A stretch of 64,000 nt of DNA from a virus (IMGVR_UViG_3300027833_001604:45014-109013), one strand, 5' to 3'; shown: positions 6,937-22,329, counted from the stretch's first letter. The notes: a model not told the origin generated them from the sequence alone. Translations and numbers: made by a program.

Positions 6937-8062
6937 CCTTACGTTTAGGTATCTTACTATCTGCACTTGAAACACATGCTTTTGTTGTGCATATTGTAGG
7001 TTTATCAAACAATTTAAACCCTGTTTCAATATTACCTAACGGTTGATCACCACAACTATAACTACGTTTTATACTTCCGTCTGGCTCACGTATGATAATA
7101 CCTTGGTATCCACTGTTACACATCCAGCCTTTGAAGTTATTAAACTCAAATGCATTAAAACGTTCCGCTTGGTCCATATACCATTTTTTGCCTTTAGAGT
7201 CTGTAAACTCTACTTGCATGTTCCACGGAACACTAGCATCGTTTCTACCAATAGTATACTCTGGCATTTCAAAACTTGGCTTAGGACGTTCAACTACTCT
7301 TGCTTCTGCAGCTTTTTGTTCTGTATAACTACGCTGTGGCATTCCATTGTGTAATTTCTTTTTCATCTCAGGTGTATAACCATCTACTACTCTACTTGCA
7401 GTTGGATCTGACTGAGGTTTTAGTGTAACGTTAATACCTTGTTTATGAAAGAACAATGCATTATCATAATATGTATCAAACAGCTCAGGCACCATAACCA
7501 TGTTAATAGTTATTTGCACATCATGTTCTTGACAAAGTATTAGTTTATCTGCAAGGTCTTGCATCTTCTCTGGTGTGTCAACATGCTCGATATGTAAACT
7601 ACATGTAATACTAGCTCTATGAAAATGCTTTACGTAATCAACATACGTTTCAAACCATTTCATTGGCCTACTACAATTGCTTGTCATATGCACACTTGTA
7701 TAGTTTGTGTTATGCACATCATCTGCTAGATGTTTTAACATATCTAAGTAACCAGGATGGAATGTAGGCTCGCCTCCACTTAAACTAAAATGGAAACTAT
7801 TGAATCCGTTTTGTCTTGCTTGGCGTTTTATCTCGTCTATTGTTTTTAAGTTAAGTTCAGTAGGACGATGGTCCTTGCGATCACTACGAGCATAAGGCCA
7901 GCAATAAGAACATCTGTAGTTACAGAATCTTCCTAGTAACCAACTAACTGTAAATAAATCACGATACAATAAAGTCCGTTGACCAACTTGAACTAAATCA
8001 TCAAATGGTATTTTTGTAAAATCATAATTTGACCACTTTAAGTCGTCTGTATCATTGCTCAT
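6932..8062 (-). CDS. radical SAM protein with C-terminal Cys-rich domain
   Basis: CNYRCSYC, SGGEP, C-terminal C...SC...CTTKAC. Confidence 0.92.
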   Translation of the reverse strand: MSNDTDDLKWSNYDFTKIPFDDLVQVGQRTLLYRDLFTVSWLLGRFCNYRCSYCWPYARSDRKDHRPTELNLKTIDEIKRQARQNGFNSFHFSLSGGEPTFHPGYLDMLKHLADDVHNTNYTSVHMTSNCSRPMKWFETYVDYVKHFHRASITCSLHIEHVDTPEKMQDLADKLILCQEHDVQITINMVMVPELFDTYYDNALFFHKQGINVTLKPQSDPTASRVVDGYTPEMKKKLHNGMPQRSYTEQKAAEARVVERPKPSFEMPEYTIGRNDASVPWNMQVEFTDSKGKKWYMDQAERFNAFEFNNFKGWMCNSGYQGIIIREPDGSIKRSYSCGDQPLGNIETGFKLFDKPTICTTKACVSSADSKIPKRKV

Positions 8063-8624
8063 CTTTGTTTCCTATTTGTAATGGATCCACGCTTAGTTCA
8101 TTAACTGATAAATGCTCTGGCATATTAATTACGTATTCAATTAAGTCTACGGCTTCGTCTAGTGTCATTGTTTTACGTCCTGGGTGCTTGTGTGCATTGT
8201 TCTCTAATGTGCCAAATGTAACATAACTTACCTTAGGACCACCTGACCAAATGCTTTTTAGACCCATTGCATTGCTTGTGCTACGTAGGGCCTTCTTTTC
8301 TTGTTGATAAAGCCAATCGCTACCCTTTGTAGCTCTGTCAGTTGTGGAGCCTAAATTAACTATATGTAGTCGTTTAAGGTGTCTTAAAGCGTCTTTATAG
8401 ACTACATCTAGCACCAGTGTTTGATTGAAGCGCCATAATGCACTAGAGTTAATAAAAACGTCAAAGTTAAGAGCCTTTTCTGCAAGCTTCTCTCTATAGC
8501 CATTTTCAGTTAAATCGTAGCCCCATGTAGTTCTACCAACAAATACTGTATCAGGCCATCTTTTGGCAATAGCACTTGCTAAACCTTTTTCTGGATTACC
8601 TGTGCATAGTATTGTTTTAGACAT
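8052..8624 (-). CDS. short-chain dehydrogenase/reductase-like protein (start reassigned to MSKTIL)
   Basis: TGNPEKGLA Rossmann motif, FINSS, IVNLGS, YQQEK (YxxxK). Confidence 0.8.
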   Translation of the reverse strand: MSKTILCTGNPEKGLASAIAKRWPDTVFVGRTTWGYDLTENGYREKLAEKALNFDVFINSSALWRFNQTLVLDVVYKDALRHLKRLHIVNLGSTTDRATKGSDWLYQQEKKALRSTSNAMGLKSIWSGGPKVSYVTFGTLENNAHKHPGRKTMTLDEAVDLIEYVINMPEHLSVNELSVDPLQIGNKDEQ

Positions 8625-9843
8625 CAATGTATCCTTCAAACTCAGGACATGCTTCAAGTAGTTTACCACGTTGCAGTTCATCCATTTTGAGATTGTAATC
8701 AACAAACTGTTGCCATAAATCTTCGTGCCAATCTTCAGCTGTCATATACTTTAGTGTGTCCATTACTTTAGGCCACTTTTGGTATGGTAGTAAATTTAAT
8801 GCTGCTTTTTCTTTTAATGCCACAGGTAATACACGTATGTTCATACAATCTGGATGATTAAGAATATTAAGATACACTTGATCACCTTCCAATCCACGTG
8901 ACTCTGCAAAGTCCAATAGTTCATGTAATGCACATATGTTAAGTGCTTGAACTGTGCAATGTATTTGAATATCTACATTATCAAACGTGCTTAATTCATC
9001 AAAGTTTTTCTCTACTTTTTCCCAACTACTTGGATAACGAATATATCTATCACGATGTCCAACTGCATCAATACTACAGTTAAGTTGCACACGTTTAAAC
9101 TTACTCCAGTATTCAATCATCTTAGGTGGAATATTAGTTAGGTTAGTATTATATTTTAGTTTAATTCCACCTGCTAAATCATTTTCAATACAATAGTCAA
9201 GTAATTTATATTGTGATGTAGCTAGTGTAGGCTCACCACCTGTTAAGTATATCTCTTGAACTGTATGTGCAATGTCTTGGAAGTTTAGCCCTGTCTTTTT
9301 AAAGTCTGGCCATTCAGTCATTACGTTCATAAACTTTAAAGTCTCACCTGTAAGTTCTACTGGTGGATCTAATTTCGCTGTTGGAACTACTGCATTCCAA
9401 TCTTTAACCCACATGCTACTTGCCCAAGGATTACACATTCTGCATTTTAAATTACATAGGTTGCCTAAACGTAAATCAACATAACGCACATCCACTGGAA
9501 TCTTAGTATCTACTTTAACATCATCTGTCCACCACTTTTCATTAAAGCCTGCACGTGGGCTACGAATGCCTGCGTCTTCTTCACGGAAACAACGAACACA
9601 CATCTCTGGCTTTTCACCATTGAGAAACTCTTCTCTGATTTTTGTGTATGTAGGACTGTTCCATACTTCTTCTAAGTCATGTTTATAAATTTTAAACGGC
9701 TTGTCTGTTTCAGGGTTTACAATTTGATTTGTATTAGGATTACTGTTACAACACACCCTAAAGCTACCCGCAGCATTTGTTGCCACATGCATAAACGGTA
9801 GCACACAAAATGTCTTACTTGGTAATGGTTTATCTGTTTTCAT
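8617..9843 (-). CDS. N-terminal twitch-domain radical SAM protein
   Basis: CVLPF...VCC...CVRC then CNLKCRMC, TGGEP. Confidence 0.92.
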   Translation of the reverse strand: MKTDKPLPSKTFCVLPFMHVATNAAGSFRVCCNSNPNTNQIVNPETDKPFKIYKHDLEEVWNSPTYTKIREEFLNGEKPEMCVRCFREEDAGIRSPRAGFNEKWWTDDVKVDTKIPVDVRYVDLRLGNLCNLKCRMCNPWASSMWVKDWNAVVPTAKLDPPVELTGETLKFMNVMTEWPDFKKTGLNFQDIAHTVQEIYLTGGEPTLATSQYKLLDYCIENDLAGGIKLKYNTNLTNIPPKMIEYWSKFKRVQLNCSIDAVGHRDRYIRYPSSWEKVEKNFDELSTFDNVDIQIHCTVQALNICALHELLDFAESRGLEGDQVYLNILNHPDCMNIRVLPVALKEKAALNLLPYQKWPKVMDTLKYMTAEDWHEDLWQQFVDYNLKMDELQRGKLLEACPEFEGYIDV

Positions 9844-21237: not shown

Positions 21238-21240
21238 GTA

Positions 21241-22329
21241 TTAGATATACTTCTTATTTGTAATGTAATCGTGGCAGTCGCCTTCACGCACCATATCACT
21301 TGTTAAACAATGGATTCCACCGTCCCAAAAGTATTGGTGTCTAAAACGCCATACAATAGGCTCAATACCATGTGCTTCCATTCTACGAAATGCATCATCA
21401 TTTCTGCCTGTGCAAATAACTGTATTCTCATCTAGTGATAATACATTAACATCAAATACACTTTCGTCTGCATATCCAACCCAATGTCCTAACCATTTTT
21501 GAACATACTCTTTATAGTATCTACGCTTACGAGTATCTAAAAAGTCCTGTGGCATTTCGTGGTCGTCATCAACTTCAATAATGTCCCAATCTTTAAATTC
21601 TTCTGGAACCCACTTTTTGTTCCATGTCATTAATACACCTGGTCTAAGTAATGCAATTTTACCATCTGCATGCCCGCCTGTTTTAATCTCAAGGAACTTG
21701 GTGTCTGGATAACGTTGTGTAATTTCACGTTTCATCCACTCTTTACCAAGCAGTGTGCCTTTACCTTTTTTGTTATCTTCTTCCCATGCTTGTGAAAACA
21801 AAATGTGACGTCCACATTTTATCATGTTAGCCGCATGGTATAAAACTTTTTGTTCTTCTGAGTATGTATCATACCCAATTCCGCCACGCACCATTGCACC
21901 CGGCATTGAAACCCAATCGGCTCCATTTTTAAACAACTCTACCATATGATCGTAATATGCTAGGTTCTCAAAGTATCTATTGTCGCCACCTGTAAAACAT
22001 TCAAATACTGAATTACCATATGGCATTAGTGTATCACGTGGCATTAGTGGGTGGTTGGGAAATCCACAACTCATCCAAGGTAATTGGATTTGTTCTTCAC
22101 CATTAATAGTGAAAATATTGTTAGGGCGTAATACTTCGATGCCCCTGTCTTCTAATAGTTTTGCAAGGACTTCAATGTCCTCTTGTGTTTCCGTAAAGAT
22201 TTGACGCATAGTTTCACGTGTTTCAGGATCCTTGTGCCAATCAAATGTTTCTGGTGGGAATGGAGCGCCAAGTATAACCTTCTTCAAAGGTTGAAACTCA
22301 GTCCATGCATTAACTGCCGGTGTAGTCAT
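21241..22329 (-). CDS. amidinotransferase (glycine/inosamine-phosphate amidinotransferase family)
   Basis: NAWTEFQPLKKVILG, MPRD, HAD, VNVLSLDE, GGIHCLTSD with catalytic Cys. Confidence 0.88.
   Translation of the reverse strand: MTTPAVNAWTEFQPLKKVILGAPFPPETFDWHKDPETRETMRQIFTETQEDIEVLAKLLEDRGIEVLRPNNIFTINGEEQIQLPWMSCGFPNHPLMPRDTLMPYGNSVFECFTGGDNRYFENLAYYDHMVELFKNGADWVSMPGAMVRGGIGYDTYSEEQKVLYHAANMIKCGRHILFSQAWEEDNKKGKGTLLGKEWMKREITQRYPDTKFLEIKTGGHADGKIALLRPGVLMTWNKKWVPEEFKDWDIIEVDDDHEMPQDFLDTRKRRYYKEYVQKWLGHWVGYADESVFDVNVLSLDENTVICTGRNDDAFRRMEAHGIEPIVWRFRHQYFWDGGIHCLTSDMVREGDCHDYITNKKYI

Follow-up and report, generated by a model that had tools for sequence, protein, structure and literature searches.

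Modules that combine radical S-adenosylmethionine (SAM) enzymes with an amidinotransferase were noted in phages in 2010 and are still without an explanation. In the Campylobacter phages CP220 and CPt10, the module comprises five radical SAM genes and one amidinotransferase gene and was described as an interchangeable block (Timms et al., 2010; PMC2853527). Analogous genes in Synechococcus phage S-SCSM2R have been called 'antibiotic synthesis genes', a label given without experiments, and the virion proteome of that phage includes another amidinotransferase along with a prolyl-hydroxylase-like protein (PMC12801897). Our literature search found no function assigned either to these phage modules or to the family of radical SAM proteins with an N-terminal twitch domain (N-twitch) that dominates the locus described here. 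We find such a module within an extensive, conserved enzyme island that is abundant across marine metagenomes and common to jumbo phages and predatory Bdellovibrionota. The island was analyzed in a window of 64,000 nucleotides, bases 45014-109013 of the 109-kb IMG/VR viral contig IMGVR_UViG_3300027833_001604 (CheckV completeness ~30%), and all coordinates below are those of the window. The best available reading is that the island converts an amine to a guanidine within a radical SAM tailoring pathway, and the evidence modestly favors a decorated sugar or glycan over the alternatives as the product.

The source is an uncultured marine jumbo phage. Matches to PHROG families elsewhere in the window (protease, exonuclease, ATPase, HNH endonuclease and nucleotide-sugar epimerase) indicate a large tailed phage, near-identical DNA is present in marine metagenomes of more than ten studies, and a megablast search of the stretch against GenBank phages gave no match. 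The island covers ~25 kb, about 4443-29778, with 8052-22329 as its core. Every open reading frame (ORF) in 4443-22329 lies on the minus strand, and the run picks up again at 24299-29778. Within 8052-22329, adjacent genes overlap by 1-23 nt or are spaced by 3 nt, the lone exception being a 146-nt gap at 9844-9989. Because of this co-orientation and tight packing, the co-oriented gene run described in an earlier note on this DNA is real and operon-like. A consensus scan found 53 promoter-like sites, against 60 ± 7 in shuffled sequence and thus no excess, and 14 terminator-like sites, a slight excess only over the 7.8 ± 3.2 in shuffles; since neither gave a usable signal, no operon boundary can be placed. 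Metatranscriptome contigs from three marine studies match parts of several island genes (8052-22500) at 90-99% identity. This coverage is a weak hint of expression at sea, and we do not count it as proof because RNA libraries can contain DNA and most of the pieces come from relatives.

The core genes on which the argument turns are the following.

21241-22329, minus strand: amidinotransferase of the arginine type, 362 amino acids (phmmer and profile searches against the PDB; phrog_25854, 5e-23).
20173-21237, minus strand: radical SAM enzyme with a C-terminal Cys-rich (SPASM/twitch-like) region, 354 amino acids (Pfam Radical_SAM 1.9e-9, partial NCBIfam matches, phrog_21308).
18930-20183, minus strand: N-twitch radical SAM enzyme, the constant partner of the amidinotransferase, 417 amino acids (NF033640, 261 bits).
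17370-18356, minus strand: fold-type-I pyridoxal phosphate (PLP) enzyme, class-I/II aminotransferase-like, 328 amino acids (AlphaFold2 model with Foldseek, motifs).
16162-17370, minus strand: N-twitch radical SAM enzyme, 402 amino acids (NF033640, 235 bits, match G000:C1:61247-62365; Pfam Radical_SAM).
14927-16162, minus strand: N-twitch radical SAM enzyme, 411 amino acids (NF033640, 313 bits; Pfam SPASM at residues 14-76, Radical_SAM at 120-273).
9990-10961, minus strand: N-twitch radical SAM enzyme, short paralog, 323 amino acids (NF033640, 184 bits).
8617-9843, minus strand: N-twitch radical SAM enzyme, 408 amino acids (NF033640, 375 bits).

Sequence comparison places the amidinotransferase in the AGAT/StrB1/HsvA/SxtG transferase family, as a branch of its own, and not with the arginine deiminases. 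A phmmer search of the PDB retrieves HsvA (5wpi, 1.5e-28), StrB1 (1bwd, 1.7e-19), SxtG (6u1r, 1.2e-17) and AGAT (1jdw and related entries, 1.9e-13), with homology over the full length in each case, and matched no deiminase. The single sequence scores 103 bits with HsvA versus 73 bits with StrB1. A profile built from 25 diverse homologs gives 196.3 bits for HsvA, 196.0 for StrB1, 190.3 for SxtG and 178.8 for AGAT, and it reaches arginine deiminase only at E 0.1 and agmatine deiminase only at E 0.9; the profile thus sides with a transferase, as the earlier note had called it, over a deiminase. We regard the branch as separate because the profile scores all four solved transferases near-equally and identity to them is ~30% or less.

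Most of the expected catalytic residues are in place. Asp99 of 'PRD' aligns with Asp108 of StrB1, His220 and Asp222 of 'GHADG' align with His227 and Asp229 in the StrB1 sequence 'THVDS', and the nucleophile Cys341 of 'GGIHC' aligns with the 'FHC' of HsvA and StrB1 (Cys332 in StrB1, Cys407 in AGAT). His220, Asp222 and Cys341 are invariant among the 25 homologs, and Asp99 is kept in at least 90% of the sequences. The triad Asp, which from the published structures we take to be Asp179 of StrB1 and Asp254 of AGAT, is replaced: pairwise alignments set 'YHAAN' (His165) against 'FDAAN' in StrB1 and 'FDAAD' in HsvA. The intact Asp/His/Cys motifs of the earlier note are therefore upheld for Cys341, His220, Asp99 and Asp222 but not for the triad Asp. 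At position 165, every viral and Bdellovibrionota ortholog has His, the CP220 and S-SCSM2R copies have Asp, and other paralog clades have Asn or Ser. Conservation of His165 through a clade spanning 38-94% identity speaks for a working enzyme whose charge relay is altered, and against decay. Many related phage islands also carry one or two extra amidinotransferase paralogs (12 loci) that are very diverged (23-29% identity, some ~410 amino acids long). The presence of Asp, Asn or Ser at the triad position of these extra paralogs hints that several different amidination steps may take place.

The enzyme proposed to supply the amine is less easily recognized by sequence. Pfam Aminotran_1_2 (PF00155) scores 19.5 bits, under its gathering score of 19.7, and covers residues 161-230 only; a PDB sequence search with the protein gave nothing useful. 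The AlphaFold2 model (predicted local distance difference test score, pLDDT, 81.6; predicted template modeling score 0.84) has at least 500 Foldseek matches in the PDB at E <= 0.001, the best of which are 4my5, 3fvs, 2x5d and 1lc8 (E ~1e-9, template modeling score 0.5-0.58). The top enzymes include aromatic, aspartate and kynurenine aminotransferases, the CobD threonine-phosphate decarboxylase, 1-aminocyclopropane-1-carboxylate synthase and the arginine desaturase Plu4. In 18 orthologs 'PFSGTG', 'VDxAW' (Asp188), 'FS(T/L)(T/S)K' (Lys216) and Arg224 are invariant; the window sequence reads VDMAW around Asp188 and FSTTKGL around Lys216. By analogy with class-I aminotransferases, these motifs would parallel NPTG, DxAY, SxSK and GxR, such that Lys216 would be the Schiff-base Lys and Asp188 would bind the pyridine nitrogen. 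The modeled fold and the invariant Lys216 and Asp188 thus bear out the fold-I assignment of the earlier note, the sub-threshold Pfam score notwithstanding. On the strength of the model, the enzyme is of the amino-acid type within fold I and not of the DegT/DnrJ/EryC1 type that aminates inosose and nucleotide-sugars, and PF01041 (DegT) matched neither this protein nor anything else on the 109-kb contig. Some class-I/HisC-like enzymes, such as NikK, aminate keto-sugar nucleosides. With a class-I fold, a sugar substrate is therefore less likely but still conceivable.

The radical SAM enzymes make up the bulk of the island. NCBIfam NF033640 (N_Twi_rSAM, 'twitch domain-containing radical SAM protein') has a curated cut-off of 170 bits, and full-length matches above it are found for five genes in 8052-22329 (184-375 bits), in agreement with the several twitch enzymes reported earlier, and for seven in the island. 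In Pfam order, a SPASM-type Cys domain (residues 13-85) precedes the Radical_SAM core (126-285), and C13, C82 and C85 together with C130-x3-C134-x2-C137 are invariant in 12 viral and bacterial paralogs. Positions 6-74 of a paralog profile match the C-terminal twitch domain of BtrN (4m7t, residues 184-257) at E 6.6e-7, and no similarity to BtrN was reported for the core of this profile. Instead, the core is closest in the PDB to the uncharacterized radical SAM protein 8vpo, SkfB, ChlB and BlsE. BtrN and BlsE, which are matched by the twitch domain and the core, respectively, both act on carbohydrate-type substrates. Because the domain order is reversed and only the twitch part is similar, the N-twitch proteins are not members of the BtrN family, and the BtrN analogy drawn earlier is good for the twitch domain alone. 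Orthologs of 8617-9843 keep 48-53% identity in the most diverged viral clades. For the short paralog 9990-10961, the NF033640 match continues through three stop codons into the gap at 9844-9989, which suggests a truncated or decaying copy. PDB sequence searches with the radical SAM protein 6932-8062 and the N-twitch protein 26971-28404 returned marginal core matches only.

These genes travel together. Orthologs of the amidinotransferase occur at 41 IMG/VR viral loci (93-44% identity), and the gene order around them is stable: a group of N-twitch 26971, the nucleosidase-like gene and N-twitch 25149, then the amidinotransferase, radical SAM 20173, N-twitch 18930 and the PLP gene, followed by N-twitch 16162, N-twitch 14927, two paralogs of a two-domain GT-A-like (sugar transferase fold)/methyltransferase-like protein, an AspH oxygenase and N-twitch 9990. 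The order amidinotransferase, N-twitch 18930, PLP gene, with or without radical SAM 20173 after the first, persists in viral loci at 94% to 47% identity. Radical SAM 20173-21237 itself, directly downstream of the amidinotransferase, is its neighbor in the majority of the closely related viral loci. N-twitch 18930 is represented by an ortholog immediately or shortly after the amidinotransferase at 33 of the 41 viral loci and at six of ten Bdellovibrionota loci, and is still recognizable at 35-39% identity in diverged clades. The PLP gene is within 10 kb of the amidinotransferase in 29 of the 41 viral loci; on two contigs of the most diverged clade it is ~33 kb off, on the same contig. The association of the amidinotransferase with PLP and radical SAM genes that the earlier note had anticipated in other phages thus holds in the 41 viral loci, down to 44% identity and usually with the PLP gene included, and extends to Bdellovibrionota.

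The same gene set is held by ten Bdellovibrionales/Pseudobdellovibrionaceae assemblies (amidinotransferase 37-47% identical), in which the PLP gene usually adjoins the amidinotransferase in divergent orientation. One of these loci sits on a 916-kb contig beside a Ser/Thr kinase, and that Bdellovibrionia genome (4.5 Mb) contains 19 NF033640 genes above cut-off, with a single 30-kb stretch accounting for at least 13. On one side of the cluster there (G001:C1:745000-775000; L058, L046) lie genes for a TPMT-like methyltransferase and a UDP-sugar-pyrophosphorylase-like protein, and on the other side lies the Ser/Thr kinase. In a quick maximum-likelihood tree, rooted by midpoint and paralogs only and with support limited to the Shimodaira-Hasegawa-like approximate likelihood ratio test, 23 viral amidinotransferase orthologs form one well-supported clade nested in a Bdellovibrionota grade. 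Among 201 sampled genomes of the Bdellovibrionia carrier's phylum, the carrier itself and one weak match were found; in that phylum, among the genomes searched, the island is rare and patchy.

A search with the PLP enzyme as query shows where the amidinotransferase stands in this set. It returned many N-twitch islands with a PLP gene and no amidinotransferase within 10 kb (L109-L116, L121-L124, L126, L128, L130). The stable core consists of the N-twitch enzymes, radical SAM 6932-8062 and the PLP enzyme, with AspH in most cases, and the amidinotransferase looks like a frequent but optional addition. Because PLP islands so often occur without one nearby, amidination would be an optional late tailoring step and not the center of the pathway.

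Two further genes bear on the oxidation step that had been proposed for the island.

8052-8624, minus strand: short Rossmann/SDR-like (short-chain dehydrogenase/reductase) protein, 190 amino acids (motif spacing by eye, lead from the ESM Atlas).
6932-8062, minus strand: radical SAM enzyme just outside 8052-22329, 376 amino acids (Pfam Radical_SAM 7.9e-14).

The first of these, called an SDR in the earlier note, is a probable short Rossmann/SDR-like protein, which probably starts at the ATG at 8624 (190 amino acids) and not at the TTG at 8705. By eye, it shows a Gly-rich turn 'CTGNPEKGLA' (TGxxxxGxA) at residues 7-16 and Ser93, Tyr106 and Lys110 at SDR-typical spacing (Ser and Tyr 13 apart, YxxxK). 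A feature search of the ESM Atlas gave, as a lead only, viral clusters in which 10-56% of members carry adh_short or Epimerase. No match was found in Pfam, NCBIfam or PHROG, nor among PDB sequences even at E <= 10, so the motif spacing and the Atlas lead speak for the SDR call and profiles and solved structures do not, leaving it weakly supported. The constant neighbor of this gene is radical SAM 6932-8062, not the amidinotransferase; the adjacency is kept in L071-L076 at 54% and 65% identity. This radical SAM enzyme is the best-conserved protein of the island, at 77-80% identity where the amidinotransferase is at 48-53%, and at 61% in Bdellovibrionota. It may act on a universal early substrate. 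The oxidize-transaminate-amidinate logic of the earlier note thus remains reasonable for transamination and amidination where those genes are adjacent, and its oxidation step is drawn away by the pairing of the SDR-like gene with radical SAM 6932-8062. Because of that pairing, and because the PLP gene often occurs without an amidinotransferase, the three-step chain is conjectural and not a conserved three-gene unit.

The remaining genes of the island are these.

13172-14623, minus strand: two-domain GT-A-like and methyltransferase-like protein, 483 amino acids (AlphaFold2, Foldseek, structural alignment).
11694-13172, minus strand: paralog of 13172-14623, 492 amino acids (~19% identity in a full-length alignment).
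10939-11694, minus strand: 2-oxoglutarate (2OG)/Fe(II) oxygenase of the Asp/Asn beta-hydroxylase (AspH/LpxO) type, 251 amino acids (PF05118, 1.1e-10).
26423-26974, minus strand: nucleosidase-like protein of the methylthioadenosine/S-adenosylhomocysteine (MTA/SAH; 5'-deoxyadenosine) type, 183 amino acids (Pfam PNP_UDP_1, 1.5e-13).
18346-18933, minus strand: poorly conserved 195-amino-acid protein (no Pfam, PHROG or NCBIfam match).
14751-14930, minus strand: small ORF, 59 amino acids (4-nt overlap with neighbors; 76-88% identity in four related loci).
14620-14754, minus strand: small ORF, 44 amino acids (4-nt overlap with neighbors; weakly kept in three related loci).
6087-6923, minus strand: class-3 lipase (Pfam Lipase_3, 1.3e-17).
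5442-6077, minus strand: second 2OG oxygenase of the AspH/LpxO family (Pfam).

The two proteins of 483 and 492 amino acids have no match in Pfam, NCBIfam or PHROG, and what can be said of them comes from the model of 13172-14623 (pLDDT 82.3), which has two domains. Residues ~14-260 are GT-A-like, with VIA-align Z scores of 10.6 to majastridin (2nxv), 9.5 to mimivirus R699 (9dyt), 9.3 to Manic Fringe (2j0b) and 8.4 to PBCV-1 A64R (2p6w) and a Foldseek E of 6e-4. Residues ~261-480 resemble class-I SAM methyltransferases (6ulo, Z 13.2; INMT, 9.8; the OvoA methyltransferase domain, 9.7). Invariant residues of this second half include G295, D317 and N418, which we would place at the expected SAM-binding motifs. 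In the GT-A half, the sole stand-in for a DxD motif is position 84 in 'WF(D/E)GxWP', which is acidic in 21 of 22 sequences. Its paralog 11694-13172 presumably shares this build. In the Atlas the family is almost wholly viral, and some forms are fused to Asp_Arg_Hydrox. The AspH oxygenase 10939-11694 that follows the two paralogs is conserved in viral and Bdellovibrionota islands.

The nucleosidase-like gene sits between two N-twitch genes, a position kept in 19 loci, and its product matches NCBIfam nucleosidase (2.8e-31) and MTA/SAH nucleosidase (6e-20) models, all under curated cut-offs. Other genes are more loosely attached. The lipase is present only in the closest relative and is probably a recent addition, and the 195-amino-acid protein is found only in two loci at 43-46% identity. 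A search for precursors of ribosomally synthesized and post-translationally modified peptides in the gaps 9844-9989, 14624-14926 and 22330-22468 gave no evidence of a precursor peptide, since the two small ORFs of the second gap are kept only in close relatives. A divergent gene pair on the plus strand (22469-24314) adjoins the amidinotransferase and encodes a 278-amino-acid protein with a faint KdoO-like 2OG-oxygenase match and a 338-amino-acid protein; it belongs to the island, because the first gene is kept in 25 related loci and the second in 18. At the other end, on the minus strand, 4443-5445 holds a radical SAM core (4792-5445, 217 amino acids) and a separate SPASM-like piece (4443-4799, 118 amino acids) that overlap by 8 nt. 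This arrangement looks like a split, or programmed two-part, radical SAM/SPASM enzyme, and the same split is seen in three related loci.

Enzyme families, modeled folds, conserved catalytic residues, tight gene packing and linkage across phages and bacteria are supported directly, and on this basis we propose that the island enzymes would act in sequence on one carbohydrate-type substrate, which could be a nucleotide-sugar, a nucleoside-sugar or a glycan. The GT-A-like/methyltransferase-like proteins would transfer and methylate sugars, and the AspH-type 2OG oxygenases would hydroxylate. Radical oxidations, epimerizations, deoxygenations or C-C bond formations would fall to the N-twitch paralogs, and a resulting carbonyl would be converted to a primary amine by the class-I-fold PLP enzyme. 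Cys341 of the amidinotransferase would accept the amidino group of L-arginine, forming a covalent thiouronium intermediate, and pass the group on to that amine, generating a cationic guanidino group. The nucleosidase-like enzyme is likely to clear 5'-deoxyadenosine, an inhibitory by-product of the radical SAM enzymes. We infer the order of the steps, the sugar nature of the substrate, arginine as the donor and the point of attachment, which might be a virion protein, the host envelope or a free molecule.

That the product is a guanidino-bearing decorated sugar or glycan is a tentative proposal to which we give somewhat less than even odds. The link to sugars comes from the GT-A-like and methyltransferase-like paralogs and from distant amidinotransferase modules among glycosyltransferases: the homologs in the cultured phages CP220 and S-SCSM2R (25-27% identity) are surrounded by radical SAM genes and by nucleotide-sugar or family 2/25 glycosyltransferases. 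Several observations weigh against the proposal. On the 109-kb contig, which represents ~30% of the genome, there is no sugar nucleotidyltransferase (NTP_transferase), no DegT aminotransferase and no Pfam-recognizable glycosyltransferase (Glycos_transf_2). The GT-A call is made at fold level with middling Z scores, and the canonical DxD is not visible. The folds closest to the PLP enzyme are amino-acid aminotransferases, and many islands that bear this enzyme lack an amidinotransferase within 10 kb. As a single sequence, the amidinotransferase matches best to a polyamine enzyme, HsvA, and with His165 in place of the triad Asp its chemistry could differ from that of the textbook enzymes. AspH-type oxygenases and SPASM/twitch radical SAM enzymes are also typical of protein and peptide modification.

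This last point leads to a different substrate, a virion or surface protein or a ribosomal peptide. AspH would then hydroxylate Asp, Asn or Lys, the GT-A-like proteins would glycosylate in the manner of collagen-type hydroxylysine glycosylation, the radical SAM enzymes would cross-link or epimerize, and the amidinotransferase would convert Lys or Orn to homoarginine or arginine. PF05118 is indeed a family of protein Asp/Asn hydroxylases, the nearest named families to the radical SAM cores are peptide maturases such as SkfB, PapB and PqqE, the GT-A-like model also matches LH3/COLGALT1 and mimivirus R699, and the Asp_Arg_Hydrox fusions in the Atlas point the same way. We nevertheless consider protein modification unlikely: the search for a conserved precursor peptide came up empty, small ORFs 14620-14930 being kept only in close relatives, the island showed neither a leader-peptide recognition domain nor a protease, BtrN, which has the closest twitch domain, is a small-molecule enzyme, and we know of no amidinotransferase of the AGAT/StrB1/HsvA/SxtG family that acts on proteins. 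About as doubtful is a free small metabolite, a diffusible guanidino compound made from an amino acid or polyamine as by HsvA, phaseolotoxin AmtA and SxtG, which would manipulate the infected cell or condense DNA. HsvA, which reportedly amidinates spermidine in phevamine A synthesis (amidinospermidine), is the best single-sequence PDB match at 103 bits; at the profile level, however, HsvA, StrB1 and SxtG score alike. The amino-acid aminotransferase fold of the PLP enzyme would fit such a product, as would Arg311, which is invariant in the orthologs and which we would place at the class-I carboxylate-binding site, and the authors of the S-SCSM2R study chose the label 'antibiotic synthesis genes', with no test behind it (PMC12801897). 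Yet neither the viral nor the bacterial clusters showed an ATP-grasp enzyme, nonribosomal peptide synthetase, polyketide synthase or exporter, and a free metabolite would not account for the 7-16 radical SAM paralogs and the GT-A-like proteins.

Hypermodification of nucleic acids or nucleotides, in which an aminoalkyl, sugar or guanidino group would be added to a DNA base or nucleotide, is less probable still. The window does contain a 7-deazaguanine/glycosyltransferase cluster (52393-59303) that could cooperate in such a pathway, CP220 too has QueD-like genes near its radical SAM/amidinotransferase module, and radical SAM and PLP steps occur in thymidine hypermodification pathways. The cluster and the island are, however, ~23 kb apart, the island has no DNA-binding, transglycosylase or kinase component, and in Bdellovibrionota chromosomes it is accompanied by no deazaguanine or DNA-modification gene in the stretch examined. 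The least probable of all, and one we regard as very improbable, is a streptidine-like aminocyclitol, the more specific version of the earlier note's idea, in which streptomycin biosynthesis would be the model for oxidation, transamination and amidination of an inositol-type ring. In its favor, StrB1 is clearly homologous (1.7e-19) and BtrN, whose twitch domain is similar, is an aminocyclitol dehydrogenase, but the amidinotransferase shows no greater affinity to StrB1 than to HsvA, SxtG or AGAT (profile scores of 196.0 bits for StrB1 and 196.3 for HsvA), the domain order of the radical SAM enzymes is opposite to that of BtrN, and the PLP enzyme is not of the DegT type. A dehydroquinate-synthase-type cyclase (PF01761) is absent from the contig, and with it from the island and its surroundings, as are a DegT aminotransferase and a sugar nucleotidyltransferase, and the island proteins scanned matched no kinase or phosphatase family. 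The aminocyclitol route is thus not borne out.

Returning to the guanidino-bearing sugar or glycan, its most novel form would be an undescribed, horizontally mobile pathway in which a permuted radical SAM family remodels a sugar through many radical steps and a Cys-His-His amidinotransferase adds a guanidinium, giving a heavily tailored, cationic glycan on the surface of phage, predator or prey; taken with all of these particulars, it is improbable. If true, it would point to a glycan chemistry and a predator-prey interface without characterized precedent. More generally, a guanidino-bearing glycan or metabolite as product would mean new natural-product chemistry during infection and a first function for the NF033640 family, of which these genomes carry 7-19 copies. 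The details that are new here include the Asp-to-His change in the triad, the class-I type of the PLP enzyme, the pairing of the SDR-like protein with radical SAM 6932-8062, the optional nature of the amidinotransferase, and unannotated proteins that model as sugar transferase and methyltransferase.

Comparison with described systems shows both how much is shared and where this island departs from them. With HsvA, StrB1, SxtG and AGAT, the window enzyme shares the Cys nucleophile, the His and both guanidinium-binding Asp residues, whereas its genomic context is one of many radical SAM genes and includes none of the hsv, str, sxt or creatine-synthesis neighbors. BtrN, the 2-deoxy-scyllo-inosamine dehydrogenase of butirosin biosynthesis (4m7t), has a similar auxiliary [4Fe-4S] twitch domain, but there it comes after the core in a protein of 250-270 amino acids, whereas in the window enzymes it comes first in proteins of ~400. 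Within NF033640, a family without assigned function, the island stands out for its 7-9 paralogs per phage fragment. PBCV-1 A064R, a protein with three activities (domain structure 2p6w/2p73), uses glycosyltransferase and methyltransferase domains to make capsid glycans. It offers a precedent for a virus-encoded GT-A domain joined to a SAM methyltransferase, and 13172-14623 matches 2p6w with Z 8.4 and a Foldseek E of 1.2e-2; the resemblance does not go beyond the fold, sequence identity being 4-14%, and there is no evident DxD in the window protein. The module of CP220 differs in that its amidinotransferase is 27% identical to that of the window and keeps the canonical Asp (VDAAQ), its radical SAM enzymes are C-terminally Cys-rich and nearest to window genes 4792 and 20173 rather than to the N-twitch enzymes, and no PLP-like gene was detected there with the window proteins as queries. 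What CP220 and CPt10 share with the island is the arrangement itself, a phage cluster of about five radical SAM genes around one amidinotransferase, which in CP220 is followed directly by two nucleotide-diphospho-sugar-transferase-like genes.

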